Shown: positions 11,013 through 52,446 of the stretch, piece by piece
How the letters are laid out: each line of letters starts with the position of its first letter
Position numbering within the stretch: the first letter of the stretch is position 1
Assembly (NCBI GenBank): GCA_037481835.1
Contig: JBBFKW010000006.1
Span: 64,001 to 128,000, forward strand
DNA length: 64,000 nt
Source of the DNA: Desulfosoma sp.
GTDB taxonomy: Bacteria > Desulfobacterota > Syntrophobacteria > Syntrophobacterales > DSM-9756
Direction of reading: 5' to 3'
The notes under the pieces: model-generated
Told to the model about the DNA's origin: nothing
Database searches by the model: none
Seen by the model: only the letters and a program-made list of their open reading frames with translations
Program-made: the position numbers and the translations under genes

Positions 11013-13247
11013 TTAGAACGCCGGGGATTTGGCGACCCGGCCCAAGTCGCCCCGAAGCCGATGGGCCAGCAGCGTGCATCGCTTCTGAATCCGGTCGTTT
11101 CGCACGGCCATGGCCAGGGCCTTTCGCGACCCCACCAGCACCACAAGCTTTCGGCCGCGCGTTACGGCCGTGTAGAGCAGGTTCCGCTGGAGCATCACGT
11201 AGTGTTGGGTGACGAGGGGCACCACCACCGCCGGGTATTCGCTCCCCTGGGACTTGTGCACACTCACGGCGTAGGCATGGGTGATTTCGTCCAGCTCCGA
11301 AAAATCGTAGGCCACCACGCGACCGTCCATGAGCACCCGGATTTCCTGGTTTTCCTCGTCCACCGCATGGATCCGGCCCAGATCGCCGTTGAAGACGTCC
11401 TTGTCGTAGTTGTTGCGTAGCTGCATGACCTTGTCGCCCACGCGGTAAACCCGCCCGGCCCGTTCCACGGCGCGCCCTCGGGGGTTGAGCGCCCTCTGGA
11501 GGGCCTCGTTCAGGTTCTGGGCGCCCACCGTCCCGCGGTGCATGGGGCTGAGCACCTGGATATCGTCCACGGGATCGAGCCCGAACCGGGCGGGGATGCG
11601 CTTCGTGCAGAGTTCCAGCACCACTTGGAGCACATCCTGGGGATCGTCCTTTTCGATGAAATAGAAATCCGACAGTCCCCCTTGGCGGGAACCGCCGTTG
11701 ATGGGAAACAGCCCTTCCCGGATCCTGTGGGCGTTGACGACGATGAGGCTCTTTCGGGCCTGGCGGAAAATTTCGCTCAGGCGCACCACGGCAAAGGCCC
11801 CCGAGTCGATGATGTCCTGGAGGACGTTGCCGGCCCCCACCGACGGCAGCTGGTCCACATCGCCGACGAAAATCACGGTGGTTTTGGGGGCCACGGCCTT
11901 CAGGAGGTGATGGGCGAGGAGCGCATCGAGCATGGAGGCTTCATCCACGATGAGGCAGTCGGCGGCCAGGGGCTTGTTTTCATTGCGCTGGAAGCCTCCC
12001 GCCTGAGGGCTGAATTCCAAAAGCCGGTGGATGGTGGCCGCCTCATGCCCTGTGGTTTCGCTCAATCGTTTGGCGGCGCGGCCGGTGGGGGCGGCCAGAG
12101 CCACGCGGGCCCCCAGGCGCTTGTAGGCGGCGCACACGGCCTTGACCAAAGTGGTCTTGCCGGTGCCGGGGCCTCCCGTGATGACCAGGACCTTGTCCGT
12201 GAGCGCTTTGCGGACGGCTTCCATCTGGAGCGGCGCCAGGGGAAAGGGCAGGCTCGCCGTGACGGCGCTCAGGGTTTCGTCGATCTTGGCGGGCGGGAAC
12301 CGTTTGGCGAAGGAGGCCACATAGGTCAGGCGGGCGGCCGTCTGCGTTTCCGCCGCATGGTAGCCTCGAAGATAAACGGCCGTCTCATCCCCCATGAGGC
12401 GCGCCGCCTCCTCGGGGAGCCGTTCCAGCACGGCGCGCCCGTCGGCGCTCAAGTTTTGCAGGCCCTTCGCCAAGACCTCCACGGGGGCTTCCAGAAGTTT
12501 TCGGGCGTCTTCCAGCAGCCGCTTTTTCGGCACGCACACGTGGCCTTCATCGGCGGCCTGAAAAAGCACGTAATGGAGGCCCGCTTCGGCCCGGAGCTCG
12601 GAATCCGGCCCGAAACCCAGGTTCCGGGCGATCTTGTCGGCGGTGACGAAGCCGATGCCCGCCACATCCATGGCGATCCGGTAGGGGTTTTCCCGGAGGA
12701 CCTTGAGGGATTCCTTGCCGTACTGCTTGAAGATCCGGGTCGCATGGGAGGCGCTCACCCCGTGGGTCTTGAGGAAGATCATGACTTCCCGGATTTCTTT
12801 CTGATCGTCCCAGGCCTTGAGGATCATGCGAAGGCGCTTGGGGCCGATCCCGTCCACTTGCAGGAGCCGCTCCGGGTCGGTGTCGATAACCTCCAGGGTG
12901 GCCGTCCCGAAGGCCTTGACGATGCGTTTGGCCATCTCAGGCCCGATGCCCTTGATGAGGCCCGAGCCCAAGTATTTGCGGATGCCTTCCACGGTGTCGG
13001 GGCTGAGGGTCTCGTATTGGTCGGCCCGGAACTGTTCGCCGTACTTGGGATGGCGGCTCCAGGCCCCGCGGAGCCGAAGCACTTCGCCGGGTGTGACCGA
13101 AACGAAGGACCCCACCACGGTCACCAGGTCGCGGCGGCCGCGCACCTTGAGGCGCAAGACACTGTAGCCGTCCTCTTCGCCGGCGTAGGTGATGCGTTCC
13201 ACTTGGCCTTCCAGGGTTTCCACGCTCGAAGCCCCTCGATCCTGCAT
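11013..13247 (-). CDS. recD2: ATP-dependent RecD-like DNA helicase
   Basis: HhH region GIGPEMAKRI; GGPGTGKTT, APTGRAAKR, VDEASM and HKSQGSE; start ATG 13247 or GTG 13223. Confidence 0.95.
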   Translation of the reverse strand: MQDRGASSVETLEGQVERITYAGEEDGYSVLRLKVRGRRDLVTVVGSFVSVTPGEVLRLRGAWSRHPKYGEQFRADQYETLSPDTVEGIRKYLGSGLIKGIGPEMAKRIVKAFGTATLEVIDTDPERLLQVDGIGPKRLRMILKAWDDQKEIREVMIFLKTHGVSASHATRIFKQYGKESLKVLRENPYRIAMDVAGIGFVTADKIARNLGFGPDSELRAEAGLHYVLFQAADEGHVCVPKKRLLEDARKLLEAPVEVLAKGLQNLSADGRAVLERLPEEAARLMGDETAVYLRGYHAAETQTAARLTYVASFAKRFPPAKIDETLSAVTASLPFPLAPLQMEAVRKALTDKVLVITGGPGTGKTTLVKAVCAAYKRLGARVALAAPTGRAAKRLSETTGHEAATIHRLLEFSPQAGGFQRNENKPLAADCLIVDEASMLDALLAHHLLKAVAPKTTVIFVGDVDQLPSVGAGNVLQDIIDSGAFAVVRLSEIFRQARKSLIVVNAHRIREGLFPINGGSRQGGLSDFYFIEKDDPQDVLQVVLELCTKRIPARFGLDPVDDIQVLSPMHRGTVGAQNLNEALQRALNPRGRAVERAGRVYRVGDKVMQLRNNYDKDVFNGDLGRIHAVDEENQEIRVLMDGRVVAYDFSELDEITHAYAVSVHKSQGSEYPAVVVPLVTQHYVMLQRNLLYTAVTRGRKLVVLVGSRKALAMAVRNDRIQKRCTLLAHRLRGDLGRVAKSPAF

Positions 13248-13252
13248 TGGTT

Positions 13253-13280
13253 TTGACAACGGCACGGTGATTGTTAGAAT
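13253..13280 (+). promoter_or_regulatory. Sigma70-like promoter
   Basis: TTGACA-N16-TAGAAT with an extended -10 TG, 40 nt upstream of ATG 13321. Confidence 0.6.
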
Positions 13281-13320
13281 AGCATTGAAATCTCGACGAT
13301 TCCAAGAAGGGAGGACGACC

Positions 13321-13557
13321 ATGGCTCTGTACATCAAAACCGATGATTACCGCAAATACGGCATCAGCAAGTATTCCACGCTGGAACAGGTGCGGGCCGT
13401 GGTCCAAAGGGAACTGAACATTCGACCGCTCTTCGTGCGGTTCGTCAATAAGCATGAATTCATCCGGGTGGATTTCCTGAAGCCCCAGGCCCGCCGCAAG
13501 AGGGATAGATCCCAGCCCAAGGCCGGCGAGGGAGGCCGTCGGCGCCGCCCCCGCTGA
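13321..13557 (+). CDS. Small basic hypothetical protein (78 aa)
   Basis: GGAGG RBS and upstream promoter; MALYIKTDDYRKYGISK... with an Arg-rich tail. Confidence 0.65.
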   Translation: MALYIKTDDYRKYGISKYSTLEQVRAVVQRELNIRPLFVRFVNKHEFIRVDFLKPQARRKRDRSQPKAGEGGRRRRPR

Positions 13558-13809
13558 ACCCCCGGGGGCTGTTCCGCCCACCCGGTCCAGCTGCCCCTCG
13601 GGGAGGGTCGCCTCCCCGGTCCCCGCGGGCGGGCGCGCCTCCCCCGTCCCCGCTGAAGACACGGGGGGCGCTTCCTTTTGGCCCGTCCCCGATGAAACCC
13701 AAGGGGTGGTTTTGCTCACCCGGTCCCCCTGAACCTCGGGGGTGGTTGCGTCTGCTCCTTCCCCGCGGGCGGGCGCGCCTCCCCCGTCCCCGCGGACGGG
13801 TTCGAGTTC

Positions 13810-14036
13810 ACCTTGCTCTCTCTACGGCTTTCCCGCTTCCGTCTCCCTCTCCCCCCCGGGCTCGCCGCTTCCGTCTCCCTCTCCCCCTGGTCTTGCGGAT
13901 TCTTAGCTCCCTCTCCCGCCACACTAACGGATTCCATTCTCCCGCTCTCCCCAGGTTCGGAGGCTACAAGCTCCCTCTCCCCCTTTAGGGGGAGAGGGCT
14001 GGGGTGAGGGGGCCAAAGGGCCGGGGTGAGGGGGCC
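13810..14036 (-). repeat. BoxC-like triplex repeat with decaying tandem array (left arm of DUF559 cassette 1)
   Basis: CCCTCTCCCCCTTTAGGGGGAGAGGGCTGGGGTGAGGGGG at 13973-14012, preceded by CTCCCTCTCCC-containing units. Confidence 0.9.
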
Positions 14037-14065
14037 AATTCAACAAGGATCGCCGGGAATCCACT

Positions 14066-14428
14066 ATGCACCCTCCGAGAAAACCAAAGGACATCACAAC
14101 AAAGGCCCGCTCTCTGAGAAAAAACCAAACCGACGCCGAATCGCTCCTCTGGCTTCATCTCAAGGGCCGACACCTGGCGGGAAAGAAGTTTCGCCGCCAG
14201 TACCCCATCGGGCCTTTTGTGGCGGACTTCGTCTGCGCCGAAGCAAAACTCGTCGTGGAAATCGACGGCGGGCAGCATGCCGCCCAAAACGAGCGGCAAA
14301 AGGATGCTCGGCGCTCAGAATACATGGAAGCTTTGGGATATCGGGTCCTGAGGTTTTGGAACAATGAAGTCTTGAATGAAACGCACGCGGTGTTGGAAGT
14401 CATTCGGCGGCATCTGGTAAGGGATTGA
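14066..14428 (+). CDS. DUF559 / Vsr-like endonuclease domain protein, copy 1
   Basis: ARSLRKNQTDAESLLW, KFRRQYPIGPFVADF, VVEIDGGQH and GYRVLRFWNNEV. Confidence 0.92.
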   Translation: MHPPRKPKDITTKARSLRKNQTDAESLLWLHLKGRHLAGKKFRRQYPIGPFVADFVCAEAKLVVEIDGGQHAAQNERQKDARRSEYMEALGYRVLRFWNNEVLNETHAVLEVIRRHLVRD

Positions 14429-14430
14429 CA

Positions 14431-14818
14431 CCCCCTCACCCTGCCCTCTCCCCCTAAAGGGGGAGAGGGGAACTGCATTTGAGGCTCTCTTCCCCCCAAA
14501 GGGGCAGAGGAGAACTGGATTTGAGGTTCTCTTCCCACAGTAAACTGGTAAACTTAAATCTGTTTCTCCCCCAAACTCGAAGCTTCCTATCTCCCTCTCC
14601 CCCCGGTCGTGCCGATTCCGTGCTCCCTCTCCCCCTGGGCTTGCGGATTTCGATCTCTCTCTTCCCCCTTGGAGTTCGCTGACTTCAAGCTCCCTCTCCC
14701 GCCACACTAACGGATTCCATTCTCCCTCTCCGCCCAGGTTCGGAGACTCCAAACTCCCTCTCCCCCTTCAGGGGGAGAGGGCTGGGGTGAGGGGGCCAAA
14801 GGGCCCGGGTGAGGGGGC
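14431..14818. repeat. Inverted pair of BoxC-like repeats with arrays between the DUF559 copies
   Basis: Forward copy at 14431-14470 and reverse copy from about 14755, with partial units between. Confidence 0.9.
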
Positions 14819-14848
14819 CAATTCAACAAGCATCACCGGGAGTCCACT

Positions 14849-15211
14849 ATGCACCCTCCGAGAAAACCCAAGGACATCACAACAAAGGCCCGCTCTTTGA
14901 GAAAAAACCAAACCGACGCCGAATCGCTCCTCTGGCTTCATCTCAAGGGCCGACACCTGGCGGGAAAGAAGTTTCGCCGCCAGTACCCCATCGGGCCTTT
15001 TGTGGCGGACTTCGTCTGCGCCGAAGCAAAACTCGTCGTGGAAATCGACGGCGGGCAGCATGCCGCCCAAAACGAGCGGCAAAAGGATGCTCGGCGCTCA
15101 GAATACATGGAAGCTTTGGGATATCGGGTCCTGAGGTTTTGGAACAATGAAGTCTTGAATGAAACGCACGCGGTGTTGGAAGTCATTCGGCGGCATCTGG
15201 TGAGGGATTGA
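14849..15211 (+). CDS. DUF559 / Vsr-like endonuclease domain protein, copy 2
   Basis: Protein identical to copy 1; 783-bp offset; three synonymous differences seen. Confidence 0.92.
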   Translation: MHPPRKPKDITTKARSLRKNQTDAESLLWLHLKGRHLAGKKFRRQYPIGPFVADFVCAEAKLVVEIDGGQHAAQNERQKDARRSEYMEALGYRVLRFWNNEVLNETHAVLEVIRRHLVRD

Positions 15212-15213
15212 CA

Positions 15214-15582
15214 CCCCCCTCACCCTGCCCTCTCCCCCTAAAGGGGGAGAGGGGAACCGGATTTGAGGCTCTCTTCACCCTAAAGGGGGAGAGGGGAACT
15301 GGATTTTGGGGCTTTCTTTTCCCTAAAGGGGGAGAGGGGAACTGGATTTCAGGATGTCTTCACCCCAAAGGGGGAGAGGGGAACTGGATCTCAGGGTTTC
15401 TTCCCCCTAAGGGGAAGGGGGGAAACGCCGGCGGCATCTGGTGAGGGACTGACACCCCCTCACCCTGCCCTCTCCCCCTAAAGGGGGAGAGGGGAACTGG
15501 ATCTCAGGCTTTGTTACCCCCAAAGGGGGAGAGGGAAGCTGGATTTGAGGATGTCTTCACCCCTAAAGGGGGAGGGGGGAAA
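15214..15582 (+). repeat. BoxC-like repeats with ~40-bp tandem units, including a re-copied DUF559 3' end
   Basis: Units like CCCTAAAGGGGGAGAGGGGAACTGGATTT...; CGGCGGCATCTGGTGAGGGACTGA plus a new head at about 15429-15494. Confidence 0.88.
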
Positions 15583-15679
15583 CGCAGCACGACGGCCCCT
15601 TCCCTTGAGGGCGACAAACATGCCGAAGGACGCCGCCGCTCCGGTAGGCGTTTGAGAGCCCTGCCGGTCGGGGGCCCAT

Positions 15680-15900
15680 TTGAAGGCGGTGCCGGTCCCC
15701 TGATTCTCAAAGGGCAGGGCCTGTCCCCAAATTATTAAGGGCAGGGCCTGTCCCCCAATTATTGAAGGGCGCAGCCGGTCCCCTGATTTTTTAAAGGGTA
15801 ATGCTTGTCCCCCAACGATTGAAGGGCGCTGCCGGGGCTCTAAGCATTGAAGGACACTGCTGGTCCTCCAGTCATTGGATGGCGCTGCTGAGGCTCTGAT
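15680..15900 (+). repeat. Separate ~27-bp degenerate tandem repeat (AAGGGCAGGGCCTGTCCCCAAATTATT)
   Basis: About 8 units; the two at 15710-15763 are near identical. Confidence 0.75.
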
Positions 15901-15974
15901 CGCCCGAAGGTTGTGCCGGTCTCCCGGCCCTCGCAGGCGGAATCCCGCGTCTGTCTCCTACGCTCGCAGATTTC

Positions 15975-16212
15975 AACCGTTCTCTGCCCAAGGCTAGCGG
16001 ATTCCTACCTCGCCCTCTCCCCAGCCTCGGGCATTCCAACCTCCCTCTCCCTACGGTCAGACCTTCCAAGCTCCCTTTCCCGCCACACTGGCGGATTCCA
16101 TTCTCCCGCTCCGCCCAGGTTCGGAGACTCCAAACTCCCTCTCCCCCTTCAGGGGGAGAGGGCCGGGGTGAGGGGGTCAAAGGGCCGGGGTGAGGGTGCC
16201 AAGGGGTCGGGG
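15975..16212 (-). repeat. Third copy of the DUF559 cassette left arm, with no nuclease gene following
   Basis: 16070-16197 matches about 14690-14815. Confidence 0.85.
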
Positions 16213-16307
16213 CAAGGGCGCAAAAAAATCTTGACATCCCCTCCCCGAAGAATTTATCCATAGCCTGTCTCAAAAGACGGCACCCAAAAAAGCGAAAGGC
16301 AAAAACC

Positions 16308-16403
16308 GTGCGCGCAGTGCAACAATCCCGAAATCTTCATTTCTGGTGGTGCTGGTGGTGGTGCGTTGCGCACGGGTGCGCCGACGGGGGTGCGTCGCTT
16401 TAG
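16308..16403 (+). CDS. trpL: trp leader peptide MRAVQQSRNLHFWWCWWWCVAHGCADGGASL
   Basis: GTG start with GAAAGG RBS; TGG TGG TGC TGG TGG TGG; TTGACA at 16231; directly upstream of terminators and aroF-trp. Confidence 0.85.
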   Translation: MRAVQQSRNLHFWWCWWWCVAHGCADGGASL

Positions 16404-21029: not shown

Positions 21030-21515
21030 CCCCCTCACCCCGGCCCTCTCCCCCTAAAGGGGGAGAGGGGGGCATTGAACTTCCGCCGATGGGTTGGGCC
21101 CTGTCCGCTGGATTCGTGCCACTTCTCCTTCGGGTCGGCTCCCCCCTTCCCTGGATCAGTTCCCCCTCTCCCCTTCATTCATTCCCCCTCTCCCCTTGAG
21201 GGGAGAGGGTCGGGGTGAGGGGTGATAGGCAAGGGGATAAGGGTAAGAAGTAGAGGGTAGGCAGGGAAGGGTAAGGGGTAAAGGATGAGCGGGGAAAAAA
21301 GCTCGGGGTCCGGATTCACGCTTCTATCGATGGGTTCCCCCTTGCCTCGATGGCACGCTCCCTGTCTCCTGGATTCGAGCCACTTCTCCTTCGGGTCGGC
21401 TCCCCCCTTCCCTGGATCAGTTCCCCCTCTCCCCTTCACTTATTCCCCCTCTCCCCTTGAGGGGAGAGGGTCGGGGTGAGGGGTGAAGCGTAAGGCGAGA
21501 GGGGTGAGGGGTGAT
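21030..21515. repeat. Three BoxC-like repeats, a ~118-bp direct duplication and purine heptamer runs between trpD and trpC
   Basis: Forward copy at 21030, reverse copies at about 21185 and 21445; 21108-21226 matches 21369-21487. Confidence 0.88.
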
Positions 21516-27999: not shown

Positions 28000-28304
28000 C
28001 CGCCCTGTGGGGGACTTCCGGCCCCACCTCCCCCCTCAGGGACATTTCAGGCTCCCTCTCCCCCTGTTCTGGAATCTTAGACGCCCTCTGCCCCTCTAGG
28101 GAATCTCAGACTCCCTCTCCCCTCGTTGGGGAATCCTAGACGCCCTCTGCCCCTCTGGGAAATCTCAGGCTCCCTCTCCCCCCTCTGGGGAATCCTAGAC
28201 GCCCTCTGCCCCTCTGGGAAATCTCAGGCTCCCTCTCCCCCCTCTGGGGAATTTTAGGCTCCCTCTCCCCCCTCTGGGGGGAGAGGGCCGGGGTGAGGGG
28301 GGGG
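28000..28304 (-). repeat. BoxC-like repeat with a ~30-bp array
   Basis: Head at 28261-28304; alternating GAATCCTAGACG and AAATCTCAGGCT units. Confidence 0.88.
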
Positions 28305-28370
28305 CCTTTCTCCTTTACGATTCCTTCTCAACCCTGAACCCATGACCCCCGCCGGAGGACCCGGCGCGCC

Positions 28371-28520
28371 ATGATCCCCCCGAGCCGCCTCTTCGCTGCC
28401 GGGCGCCGAACCGTTTCCCGGGATCTTCCCGACTTGGGCCGGTACATCCTCATCGGCCGCCTGAACACCGTCGTCGCCTTTTTGGGCAGCCGTCACATCG
28501 CCTTCTTCAGCAGAGGGGAA
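28371..28520 (+). pseudogene. Internally deleted GtrA-family remnant, copy 1
   Basis: AGRRTVSRDLPDLGRYILIGRLNTVV|AFLGSRHIAF aligns to both termini of the GtrA at 30230. Confidence 0.7.
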
Positions 28521-28596
28521 ACTTCCGGTGAAAGCCCCTCTTCTCCTGGAAGAGCGAAGAGCGGCGGCACGGTGAGGACGCAAGGAGGGGGGATGG

Positions 28597-29320
28597 CCCC
28601 CCTCACCCTACCCTCTCCCCCCAAAGGGGGGAGAGGGTAATAAACACAGTTAGACGCAGAGCCGCTCTTAGCCCCGACCGTTGCCTCTCGCTTCCCTTTG
28701 GGGGGAGAGGGTAACAAGCACCTCTCTCCCCCCTTTGGGGGACGAGGGCAATAAACACCTCTCGCTTCCCTTTGGGGGAGAGGGGAATAAGCACATTTAA
28801 ATGTAGAGCGGATCTTAGCCCCTACCTTTCCCTCTCGCCCCAATGTGAGGAGAGGGGGATACACACAGTTAGAGGCAGAGCCGCTTTTAGCCCCGACCGT
28901 TGCCTCTCTCCCCAAGGGAGAAGAGAGGGGCAAAGTTCATTATACGTAGAGCCATTATGAGCCCCTCCCCTTCCGTCTCCCCAAAGGGGGAAAGGGAAAA
29001 AGGGTGAGGTGGTGGAGCACACTCGCGGGCGGAGAAGTCATCCTCCCTCTCCCCCTTCGGGGAATCTTGGGCTCCCTCCCCCCTTCGGGGAATTCCAGCG
29101 CCCCTCCACCCTTTGGCCGATTCCAGGCCCCCTCTCCCCTCCTTGGGAAATCTTAGACCACCTGTCCCCCCTCTGGGGATTTTTAGGCTCCCTCTCCCCC
29201 TCTTGGGAATTTTAGGCTCCCTCTGCCCCTCTGGGAAATCTTGGGCTCCCTCTCCCCCCCTTGGGGAATCTAAGACTCCCTCTCCCCCCTCTGGGGGGAG
29301 AGGGCCGGGGTGAGGGGGGG
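28597..29320. repeat. Inverted BoxC-like pair enclosing ~70-bp and ~30-bp arrays; duplicated at 50877-51535
   Basis: Forward head at 28597, reverse head at 29278; unique core CACACTCGCGGGCGGAGAAGTCATCCTCCCT shared with about 51290. Confidence 0.9.
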
Positions 29321-29349
29321 CCTCGGTCCTCCGCCTGCTTCCCGGGGGG

Positions 29350-30060
29350 TTACGGCTTGTCGGCAAAACAGTACACCGTCAAGCCTGCCAAATCGTTTCC
29401 TTCGATCACCTTCAATTCCAACAAACACAATGCCTTGAAGAGCCCATTGAGGATCGGCGGCACCTCCCCAAGCTGAGACCGGGCCGTGTCTCGGCCCGCA
29501 ATTTTCCGACCCCACCGAGCCGCGGCAGCCATGGGCAGCACGGCGGCGAAATAATAGCCGGCTTTCTTTTCCTCCAACCCGGCATCCTTGACGACACGCC
29601 TCAATCCCGAAAGCGTATAGCGCCTCCGATGCCCCAAAAAGACATCATGGCCGCTCCAAAGGCGCGGAAAAGCCGGAACGGTGATAAAAAACCGTGTTCC
29701 CCTCTTGGCCCCGCCTGCAAGGCTCCTCAAAAAGGCAAGATCGTCATCCACGTGTTCGAGCACATCCATGAGAAGCACCAAGTCCCCTTCCAGCCTGTCC
29801 ATCCCGCGCCGGTAGTGGAGGACTTTGGGCCCGATGACCTCGTCGCACTCCGACGGATAGGCGGGATCAAGGCACCAGGCCTCCCGAGCCCCCGAGTGCT
29901 CGAGAAGATAGCGGGAGAAAAAGGCCGATCCGGCCCCCATGTCCACGATCGTTTCAGGGATTTTTCCTTGAAGAAGGACCATCATGGCCCGCGCTTTGGA
30001 CCCGTAATCCCAATGGTCTTCCAATCGCCCCTCCAGCAGGCCCGTTTCTTTGACGTCCAA
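29350..30060 (-). CDS. Class I SAM-dependent methyltransferase
   Basis: IVDMGAGS, LMDVLEHV, ITVPAF, WSGHD...GHRRRYT. Confidence 0.88.
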   Translation of the reverse strand: MDVKETGLLEGRLEDHWDYGSKARAMMVLLQGKIPETIVDMGAGSAFFSRYLLEHSGAREAWCLDPAYPSECDEVIGPKVLHYRRGMDRLEGDLVLLMDVLEHVDDDLAFLRSLAGGAKRGTRFFITVPAFPRLWSGHDVFLGHRRRYTLSGLRRVVKDAGLEEKKAGYYFAAVLPMAAAARWGRKIAGRDTARSQLGEVPPILNGLFKALCLLELKVIEGNDLAGLTVYCFADKP

Positions 30061-50876: not shown

Positions 50877-52446
50877 CCCCCCCCTCACCCCGCCCTCTCC
50901 CCCCAAAGGGGGGAGAGGGGGATGAGTTCAAATATCCGTAGAGTGGTTCTTAGCCCCTACCGTTCCTCTCTGCCAAAGGGGTGAGAGGGGGATACACACA
51001 GTTCGACGCAGAGCTGCTCCTAGCCCCGACCGTTGCCTCTCGCCTCCTTTGGGGGGAGAGGGGAATAAACACATTTAAACGTAGAGCGGATCTTAGCCCC
51101 TACCTTTCCCTCTCGCCCCAATGTGGGGAAAGGGGGATTGTTAGACGCAGAGCCGCTCTTCATCCTGACCGTTGCCTCTCTCCCCAAGGGAGGAGAGAGG
51201 GGTAAAGTTCATTATACGTAGAGCCATTATGAGCCCCTCCCCTTCCGTCTCCCCAAAGGGGGAAAGGGAAAAGGGTGAGGCGGTGAAGCACACTCGCGGG
51301 CGGAGAAGTCATCCTCCCTTTCCGCCTTCGGGGAATTCCAGCGCCCCTCCTCCCTTTGGGCCATTCCAGACTCTCTCTCCCCCTCTAAAGAATTTAAGGC
51401 TCCTTCTCGCCCCCTTGGGGAATTTCAGACGCCCTCTCCCCTCCTTGGGAAATCTTAGGCTCCCTCTCCCCCCTCTGGAGAATTTCAGGCTCCCTCTCCC
51501 CCCTCTGGGGGGAGAGGGCCGGGGTGAGGGGGGGCCTCATTCCTCCGCCTGCTTCCCGGGGGGTTACGGCCTGTCGGCGGAACAGTACACCGTCAAGCCT
51601 GCCAAGGCGATTCCAGGCTCCCTCTCCCCGTTGGGGAATCCTAGACCCCCTCGGCCCCTCTGCGAAATCTTAGACACCTTCTGCCCCTCTGGGAAATCTT
51701 AGGCTCCCTCTCCCCCCTTTGGGGGGAGAGGGCCGGGGTGAGGGGGGCCTTCCTCCTTTACGATTCCTTCTCAACCCTGAACCCATGCCCCCCGCCGGAG
51801 GACCCCGCGCGCCATGATCCCCCCGAGCCGCCTCTTCGCTGCCGGACGCCGAACCGTTTCCCGGGATCTTCCCGACTTGGGCCGGGACCTCCTCGTCGGC
51901 TGCCTGAACACCGTCGTCGGCTTTGTGGGGAGCCGTCACATCGCCTTCTTCAGCAGCAGGGAAAACTTCCGGTGAAAGCCCCCTCTTTTGCTGGAAGAGC
52001 GAGGAGCGGCGGCACGGTGTGGGCGCAAGGAGGGGGGATGGCCCCCCTCACCCTGCCCTCTCCCCCCTTTGGGGGGAGAGGGGAAAAGGGCGGGTATGGG
52101 CACGGCCCCGCGGGGGGAGGGGTGCGTACCCTGGCAGGAGGTGAGCCTCCGGGTGAGAAGGGGTGTGCCCCCGGCTGAGGAGGTGAGCGTCCGGGTGAGG
52201 AGGGGTGCGCCCCCGGAGAAGGATGGGCCGGGGGGTTAGATGTCGAAGTAGAGCATGAACTCGTCGGGGTGAGGGTGCAAGGAGGGGGGATGGCCCCCCT
52301 CACCCTGCCCTCTCCCCCCTTTGGGGGGAGAGGGGAAAAATGGCGAGCATGCACACCGCCCCGCGGGGGGAGAGGGGGAAAGGGCGGGCATGGGCACGGC
52401 CCCGCGGGCAGGAGGGGTGCGCCCCCGGAAAGGGATGGGCCGGGGG
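50877..52446. repeat. Composite repeat region: five BoxC-like heads, arrays, a permuted copy of 28110-29391 and a glnA 3' duplicate
   Basis: Direct sequence matches described in the findings. Confidence 0.9.
51814..51960 (+). pseudogene. Internally deleted GtrA-family remnant, copy 2
   Basis: Close match to 28371-28520. Confidence 0.65.

Follow-up and report, generated by a model that had tools for sequence, protein, structure and literature searches.

To our knowledge, no gene has so far been named that makes, moves or maintains the BoxC/PIT/TM repeats, and the DUF559 proteins, a very large family with a solved structure, have no known function. Known since 1992 (Bergler 1992; Hoyne and Maher 2000, 2002), the repeats are present in hundreds of genomes. 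Holder et al. (2015; PMC4666352; papers given by PMC number are cited here from the available portions of their text) describe a G/C-rich intrastrand triplex motif (TM) with 23 copies in E. coli K-12, intergenic without exception, that forms an intrastrand triplex in vitro. Some of the E. coli copies are inverted pairs of two subtypes, the motif is linked with unstable loci, no functional class was seen among its neighboring genes, and transposase or integrase remnants are, in the available portion of that paper, never found near TMs. The first BoxC report is the envM (= fabI) paper (reference 46 of PMC4666352). Here, we describe two stand-alone DUF559 genes, each set between inverted copies of such a repeat, in a 64,000-nucleotide stretch of chromosomal DNA from Desulfosoma sp. 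(the window, C6:64001-128000 of its own genome, G000, which comprises 3.63 Mb in 38 contigs with 60% G+C). Judged by its blocks, the window element is the known BoxC/PIT/TM_ECO intrastrand-triplex repeat. Repeat and protein family are each already known, while their partnership appears new: a full-text literature search, outside of which most subscription journals lie, found no paper tying DUF559 or YcjD to BoxC, PIT or TM repeats. The candidate new system proposed in a first-pass annotation of this sequence is partly supported and goes too far in one point, since the repeat itself had been described before (PMC4666352). With DUF559, a repeat family whose origin has gone unexplained since 1992 gains its first candidate for a partner enzyme. 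We lean toward a reading in which forward TM, DUF559 open reading frame (ORF) and reverse TM, together approximately 450-500 bp, make up a compact module of the REP/RAYT kind, selfish or domesticated, with a Vsr-fold nuclease that would act on the module's own repeats.

The TM is a triplex-type element of approximately 40 bp, made up of a C-rich arm, its G-rich complement, and a third G-rich block that lies toward the gene. At each window DUF559 gene the consensus is CCCTCTCCCCC-loop-GGGGGAGAGGG-CNG-GGGTGAGGG, on the plus strand before the gene and on the minus strand after it, with the third blocks (GGGTGAGGG / CCCTCACCC) pointing at the gene from either side. The inverted bracket with its tails facing the gene, as the first-pass annotation had it, is present at both copies, and the right-hand TM does begin 2 nt after the stop, which at copy 1 is TGA. 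The features of the two cassettes are as follows.

13973-14011, plus strand: forward TM upstream of copy 1, CCCTCTCCCCCT-TT-AGGGGGAGAGGG-C-TGGGGTGAGGGG (structure-based finder)
14023-14034: second GGGGTGAGGGGG block after the first forward TM
14066-14428, plus strand: DUF559 gene copy 1, 120 amino acids, Vsr-like PD-(D/E)XK fold family (PF04480, E 4.4e-40)
14431-14469, minus strand: reverse TM, beginning 2 nt past the stop of copy 1 (finder and direct reading)
14756-14794, plus strand: forward TM upstream of copy 2 (finder)
14849-15211, plus strand: DUF559 gene copy 2, protein identical to copy 1 (PF04480, E 4.4e-40)
15215-15253, minus strand: reverse TM behind copy 2 (finder)
15428-15493, minus strand: last ~24 nt of the gene repeated (15428-15451) and joined to another reverse TM (15455-15493)

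The two genes are identical, a tandem duplication 783 bp apart, and are the sole DUF559 matches of the genome. The finder, which requires a pyrimidine arm rich in C, then a loop of 2-10 nt and the arm's exact complement, and within 6 nt a G-rich block free of C, returned 24 full TMs (stems of 11-12 bp) and 2 short ones between 13973 and 60568, in agreement with the approximately 25 full copies counted earlier over that range. Matches (strand or offset) to the hairpin-core pattern numbered 50 in the window, where shuffles predict 0.01, and matches to the tail motif 50, where 2.08 were expected.

The GGGAGAGGG / GGGTGAGGG blocks of the window TMs are identical to those of E. coli, where K-12 carries 20 copies of GGGAGAGGG-N2-4-GGGTGAGGG, confirming the likeness to BoxC that had been suggested at the outset. 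Among 144 distinct asymmetric elements from related loci, the third block matched the second arm better as a mirror in 95 and better as a direct repeat in 2, with 47 ties, and this mirroring is the arrangement demanded by a purine-motif triplex. The further suggestion that the E. coli DUF559 gene ycjD lies beside fabI was also borne out, with a BoxC approximately 170 bp 3′ of the ycjD stop. The 3′ end of ycjD is itself a degenerate element with the stop codon inside the hairpin loop, and is followed by a partial duplicate of the ycjD 3′ end and then by the full BoxC, a 3′-end-plus-repeat duplication of the same kind as at 15428-15493 of the window. At this E. coli locus, the fabI-sapF gap is occupied either by the ~590-bp ycjD cassette with BoxC (K-12 1351000-1351800) or by the eefRABCD efflux operon of 8 kb, and at least 80% of the fabI-ycjD-sapF arrangement is present in 3375/5426 complete E. 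coli genomes. The two alleles diverge approximately 40 bp past BoxC, the eef junction holds no TM, and no mechanism is readable from the comparison.

The bracket is found at DUF559 genes far beyond this genome. A broad sample was formed from the best 80 of 596 confirmed DUF559 loci, with 46-68% identity to the window protein and drawn from Proteobacteria, Desulfobacterota, Chloroflexota, Nitrospirota, Planctomycetota, Deinococcus, Elusimicrobiota, and others. Within 150 bp of the gene, a TM lies upstream in 50/78 loci, downstream in 52/76, on both sides in 41/74, and on either side in 61/80. The nearest pair is forward before and reverse after the gene, written here as (+,-), in 31 loci; one side only is occupied in others ((+,none) in 8, (none,-) in 9, (none,+) in 2), 4 have both sides in the same orientation, and 19 have no TM by the finder, most of these having imperfect TMs with a stem mismatch or expanded TMs with an extra hairpin in a loop. 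TM density is 5.07 per kb near the gene and 0.160 per kb in the farther flanks, a 32-fold difference. As a control, 343 other ORFs of at least 100 amino acids from the same loci have a TM at either end in 22 cases, at both ends in 3, and in the (+,-) bracket in 0/343, so that motif enrichment and fixed orientation at DUF559 genes, which the first-pass annotation had put forward as a check, are both seen. When no motif is assumed, the two flanks still pair as an inverted repeat in 67/74 loci, outscoring 95% of the controls. A second sample, the top 30 PF04480 matches among 401 genomes of the window's phylum, has an adjacent TM in 28/30 loci (22 (+,-), 5 (+,none), 1 (none,-), 2 none) and a TM density of 7.33 versus 0.31 per kb. 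The inverted bracket in these two independent samples sustains the early comparison of the layout with RAYT genes flanked by REPs.

It could be asked whether TM pairs are a hot spot that traps or carries arbitrary short DNA, of which DUF559 is the commonest passenger. A different segment of ~300 bp is indeed bracketed in the window by a forward and a reverse TM, like the DUF559 genes, at 28261-28637 and 51706-52082; its two copies are 94% identical and have no other relative in the genome, and its short ORF (MIPPSRLFAAGRR…) reads into the reverse TM. Passive cargo is nevertheless highly improbable in our view, given a (+,-) bracket at 31/80 DUF559 genes versus none of the neighboring ORFs, a passenger that is a nuclease with conserved catalytic-type residues, an arrangement kept across many phyla, and a repeat subtype that tracks the protein lineage.

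Among relatives of the window's genome, stand-alone DUF559 genes are patchy, and each is bracketed by its own variant of the repeat (CCCTCTCCC, CCCTCCCCC, CCCCTCCC, or plain C runs), with second and third blocks to match. A cyanobacterial plasmid copy has short C5/G5 versions at its flanks, and the Neisseria gene, a homologue of which gave structure 3HRL, has a degenerate element upstream. The third block of the upstream TM ends a median of 10.5 nt short of the putative start (n=40, with start codons chosen heuristically), at the position of a ribosome-binding site, while the ORF mostly reads through the downstream TM, and there is no room in the ORF unit for the gene's own signals. ORFs that run into the downstream TM (for example, L004, L005, and L006) acquire Pro/Ser/Gly-rich tails (…PSPRPSP*, …PLPPGEG…), as does E. 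coli YcjD (…SPSP*), and these tails are probably by-products of the repeat. At four loci (L029, L031, L049, and L054), a second hairpin or an insert of ~55 bp sits in loop 1 or loop 2 of the TM and is identical on both sides of the gene, from which the two ends appear to be kept alike by concerted change.

The window protein scores 136.4 bits against PF04480 for either copy, where the gathering threshold is 20.6, and its Pfam matches are PF04480 and PF18741, with no others; PF03852, the Vsr family, is absent from them. Its closest solved structure is PDB 3HRL, an "endonuclease-like protein" (E 1.4e-26), and a profile built from an alignment of ten relatives places 3R3P, a "mobile intron protein" (homing endonuclease), second among solved relatives (E 7.4e-4). 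Residues D54, E65, D67, H71, D80, R83, and R96, among others, are invariant across the 10 relatives, and D54, E65, D67, H71, and D80 would, judged by the family, be Vsr-like active-site residues. Strain variants from other sequencing runs differ synonymously at 8 of the 11 listed ORF differences (61 further differences lie beyond those listed), and the invariant catalytic-type residues together with the mostly synonymous listed variants are signs of a working gene. Such a protein might be an ordinary Vsr-type repair or methylation-linked nuclease acting in trans on mismatches or unmethylated sites, with the TMs as cis elements (ribosome-binding site, terminator, insulator) or hitch-hikers. The upstream third block, Shine-Dalgarno-like at its median 10.5 nt, and the hairpin that the downstream TM places at the gene end would suit this, as would Caulobacter VsrA, a DUF559 protein and the only one for which we found a functional study, which is SOS-induced and damaging when the solitary ScmA cytosine methyltransferase is missing, and for which the authors propose very-short-patch repair (PMC12907096). 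Repair in trans leaves unexplained the genome-wide dispersal of the same subtypes, both as gene-less doublets and in copy numbers from tens to hundreds, nor does it explain the TM excess in DUF559-carrying genomes, nor the partial gene-end-plus-TM duplications, and no C5 DNA-methyltransferase domain was found among 43 scanned window ORFs, the sole methyltransferase match being Methyltransf_23, 15 kb off; we regard it as improbable.

Subtype and protein vary together. In genomes with more than one DUF559 gene (G021, G063 with six copies, G348, and G103), the divergent copies are each accompanied by a TM subtype of their own, and orthologues in two genomes (L162 and L168) have a common subtype. 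In a FastTree phylogeny of 131 domain sequences, the upstream TM class changes 26 times (88 labelled) versus 37.2 ± 1.5 after shuffling, and the downstream class 18 times (86 labelled) versus 34.4 ± 1.6, with 0/500 label shuffles as low as observed. The motif/protein co-variation that had been put forward as a check is therefore seen, and gives moderate support, because related genomes share labels. Upstream and downstream TMs are often two different subtypes, like left and right ends. Four copies in G021 are 75-84% identical, with a similarity that stops at the outer TM edges. Over the loci examined for target-site duplication, the inverted repeat typically runs 2-3 bp farther out, as …CT / AG….

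TMs of the same subtypes also occur as gene-less inverted pairs, dispersed in genomes rich in the repeat. One such pair in E. coli (164547-164631) is tail-to-tail, with 16 bp between the TMs, and G000 has three gene-less doublets with 21-bp spacers. In G063, with 89 type-B and 26 type-C TMs, a hand count from listings finds an inverted type-B partner within 45 bp for 18/26 type-C TMs, 11 of the pairs being hairpin-to-hairpin with 14-15-bp spacers and 7 tail-to-tail with 20-42-bp spacers; C upstream and B downstream also bracket DUF559 genes in several genomes of that phylum. The hairpin-to-hairpin doublets have fixed spacers, 14-15 bp in G063 (L179-L184) and 22 bp in G348 (L185-L188), and flanks conserved for at least 20 bp beyond the TMs, which makes the dispersed unit in these genomes a larger composite element resembling miniature inverted-repeat transposable elements (MITEs).

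These doublets bear on the main rival explanation, a free-standing homing endonuclease. Here, TM doublets would be spread and kept by other means, and DUF559 would cut the spacer of an empty doublet and be copied in by repair with the ~35-40-bp TMs as homology arms, having no part in making or spreading TMs. Empty tail-facing doublets with 16-42-bp spacers do exist, and the ORF fills the spacer exactly. Target-site duplications of at least 4 bp are at chance level (2/31 loci versus 1.8 expected), several genomes have multiple copies, TMs persist without DUF559, 3R3P is the second-best solved relative, and a review places VSR, DUF559, and DUF2726 in one group that lists a group I intron homing endonuclease (PMC3424549). 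A pair of filled and empty alleles at one locus was not found, the "empty" sites of same-genus genomes and the E. coli eef junction being TM-free, and copies within a genome are diverged, not freshly homed; the co-variation of subtype with lineage and the TM excess in DUF559-positive genomes are compatible with homing, yet not required by it. We think homing unlikely; the present data cannot separate it from a TM-acting module.

For the TM-acting module, we go beyond the anatomy, enrichment, orientation, co-variation, and co-occurrence that the comparisons show, and infer that DUF559 may bind and cleave TMs and take part in their spread. It is proposed that this small Vsr-fold endonuclease would recognize the TMs at its own ends, as hairpin plus mirrored G-rich third block, and that solo TMs and gene-less inverted pairs would be its non-autonomous partners, as REPs and REPINs are for RAYT. 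The enzyme would nick or cut at or beside the folded or duplex TM, and repair from another TM-bearing copy, through gene conversion or template switching, would copy, amplify, invert, or delete the DNA between or beside TMs. Nicking followed by repair from other TM copies would account for the tandem arrays seen locally, for the 3′ gene ends that occur in duplicate, and for the instability known at TM loci. In Caulobacter, the DUF559 protein VsrA causes DNA damage in vivo (PMC12907096), and "DUF559 domain-containing protein" is enriched, with an odds ratio of 14.3, among targets of predicted programmed inversions (PMC9881135), an enrichment consistent with gene annotations that overlap an inverted repeat at their ends.

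The same odds ratio could instead point to an invertible switch, with the inverted TMs as recombination sites that flip a promoterless DUF559 segment relative to outside promoters for phase variation; in such a symmetric cassette a G-rich block would precede the ORF in either orientation. Across the whole genome, the finder returned 67 TMs, the canonical blocks (GGGAGAGGG, 2-4 nt, GGGTGAGGG) occur in 52 copies, and the 37 neighboring pairs within 2 kb divide into 10 (+,-), 12 (-,+), and 15 of the same orientation; the impression of the first-pass annotation that copies often form inverted pairs is thus only partly borne out. Contigs from four sequencing runs over the region include strain variants in which the upstream arrays are shorter and the gene may be present once; none of the listed pieces spans the cassettes, and many stop at repeats. 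No excision, circle, or inversion joint occurs in these contigs, which drop rare variants. With no recombinase gene linked to the cassette in the window ORF scan, and with dispersed solo TMs that a switch does not explain, we give very little credence to inversion.

At the level of genomes, DUF559 and TMs tend to occur together. Among the 401 genomes of the phylum sample, 90 are DUF559-positive (a match at E <= 1e-20), and at least one canonical TM is present in 73/90 of these versus 78/311 DUF559-negative genomes, so that the repeat is far commoner where the gene is present. Of genomes with at least 20 TMs, 22/34 have DUF559. Three same-genus genomes (G001-G003) have neither a stand-alone DUF559 gene nor a TM, and carry 306-851 bp of unrelated sequence in place of window 13552-16329; as their intergenic DNA is unalignable and TM-free, no insertion boundary is definable. 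Plasmids and phages seldom carry the family (39/72,556 plasmid records, for the most part very large replicons, and 2/50,697 phage records).

Several observations weigh against a TM-acting module. A concern raised at the outset, that repeat-rich genomes might routinely lack DUF559, is realized in part, since 12/34 TM-rich genomes have no strong match; among the five richest of these, 3 have fragments only, some at contig ends, and 2 have no trace. E. coli ES5, of the eef type, has 11 TMs versus 20 in K-12 and no PF04480 match on its chromosome, and together with the TM-rich genomes it indicates that the enzyme is not needed for the repeat to persist. Conversely, 17/90 DUF559-positive genomes have no canonical TM (variant subtypes fall outside this count), and G021, with five gene copies, has 10 canonical TMs, too few to be much beyond gene flanks. 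The genomes in these counts are related, so the odds ratio overstates the independent evidence, and because they are also often fragmented and the cassette breaks assemblies, errors are likely in both directions. In the broad sample, 7/80 loci have the opposite (-,+) arrangement, and both locus samples consist of the best-scoring stand-alone DUF559 genes, with fused DUF559 domains outside. Copies within a genome are 75-87% identical in nucleotide sequence or unalignable, hence old and without sign of recent bursts. Finally, we know of no strand-transfer activity in a PD-(D/E)XK nuclease alone.

A wider claim can be put forward tentatively, and we hold it with less confidence than the module itself: throughout bacteria, stand-alone DUF559 proteins may be the partner enzymes that have long been missing for the BoxC/PIT triplex repeats, a second, independently evolved partnership of the REPIN-RAYT kind, in which a Vsr-fold nuclease would read hairpin-plus-third-strand DNA and its cutting would cause the instability of TM loci. 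If so, there would be a second repeat family living with a dedicated nuclease, comparable to REPIN-RAYT, and possibly a natural protein that recognizes triplex or hairpin DNA. The DUF559-TM link in any case gives both families a concrete and cheap test in E. coli K-12, YcjD versus BoxC. It also matters for annotation, where DUF559 ORFs running into the repeat carry spurious Pro/Ser/Gly-rich tails, and for assembly, where TM/DUF559 cassettes break short-read assemblies.

Both DUF559 genes lie between a RecD2-type helicase gene and the next conserved gene, in an otherwise ordinary neighborhood with trpC, trpB, a Tad pilus cluster, and NAD synthase farther along. The other features of the window are listed here.

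11013-13337, minus strand: RecD2-type helicase gene, neighbor of the repeat/DUF559 complex
13552-16329, strand not applicable: segment with the entire repeat/DUF559 complex (comparison with three same-genus genomes)
14470-14755, strand not applicable: spacer between the cassettes, with degenerate half-elements (…AAAGGGG[C/G]AGAGG…AACTGGATTTGAGG units) and C-rich CTCCCTCTCCC units (direct reading)
16137-16176, plus strand: third forward TM with an upstream C-rich array, gene-less, abutting the conserved TTGACA promoter region of the next gene
within 21030-60568, minus strand: further full reverse TMs at 21030, 22512, 28598, 41372, 41709, 50880, 52043, 52295, and 60529
within 21030-60568, plus strand: further full forward TMs at 21186, 21447, 26384, 28261, 29278, 47144, 47271, 51492, and 51706

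Eighteen full TMs thus lie between 21030 and 60568. Of the 67 in the genome, 31 are on one 216-kb contig, 26 of these in the window, near the genome's only DUF559 genes; in G006, TM copies are spread along the chromosome without the clustering around the gene that is seen in G000. Long tandem arrays of CTCCCTCTCCCCCCTCTGGGGAATTTTAGG-like degenerate half-elements, with a period of ~31-33 bp, lead to full TMs at 28010-28260, 29040-29277, and 51330-51700, and 28010-29400 and 50880-52340 are segmental duplicates of one another, rearranged and 76-91% identical. Directly 3′ of the variable repeat segment, at 16230-16370, a promoter-like AAAAATTTTCTTGACA box and a TTCTGGTGGTGCTGGTGGTGGTGCG start region are common to the three same-genus genomes. 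No Rfam family reached threshold anywhere in the window.

Several known systems invite comparison. With BoxC/PIT/TM_ECO, the window elements have in common the pyrimidine arm, the complementary purine arm, and the mirrored third purine-rich block, and the inverted two-subtype pairs and unstable loci are as in E. coli; they differ in their longer arms (11-12 nt) and in the concentration of 31/67 genome elements on one contig, and an associated enzyme is not reported in the available portion of the literature on that repeat (PMC4666352). E. coli Vsr belongs to the same fold superfamily as DUF559 (PMC3424549, PMC1189080), whereas the window protein has no PF03852 match and no linked cytosine methyltransferase gene among 43 window ORFs. 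Caulobacter VsrA, of the same superfamily, shows that a DUF559 protein actively damages DNA in vivo (PMC12907096). The I-Bth0305I-type homing endonuclease (PDB 3R3P) shows a weak but significant profile similarity (E 7.4e-4) and is a selfish nuclease of the same fold group, but it sits inside a group I intron, whereas DUF559 is free-standing between repeats. We know of no report that connects Vsr or VsrA with flanking repeats. IS200/IS605 elements and MITEs are likewise tiny, carry structured hairpins in sub-terminal position, have no target-site duplication, and exist as gene-less derivatives as well, to which the G063 doublets with their conserved flanks add a MITE-like form; in the DUF559 case, there are no near-identical copies within a genome, and the enzyme is of another class. 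A classical insertion sequence was considered and rejected, with copies 75-87% identical or unalignable and target-site duplications at the chance level given above (2/31 versus 1.8). Another counterpart is the REP/REPIN-RAYT (TnpA_REP) system, in which a small single- or low-copy chromosomal nuclease gene is likewise bracketed by inverted copies of the genome's dispersed hairpin repeat, with inverted doublets, a separate repeat subtype for each enzyme lineage of a genome, and no target-site duplication. RAYTs are also said to be rare on plasmids and phages, as DUF559 is here. DUF559, however, is a Vsr-fold PD-(D/E)XK protein and not an HUH/Y1 transposase, and the TM has a third mirrored block, so that the likeness is one of a REP/RAYT-like working and not of family membership.

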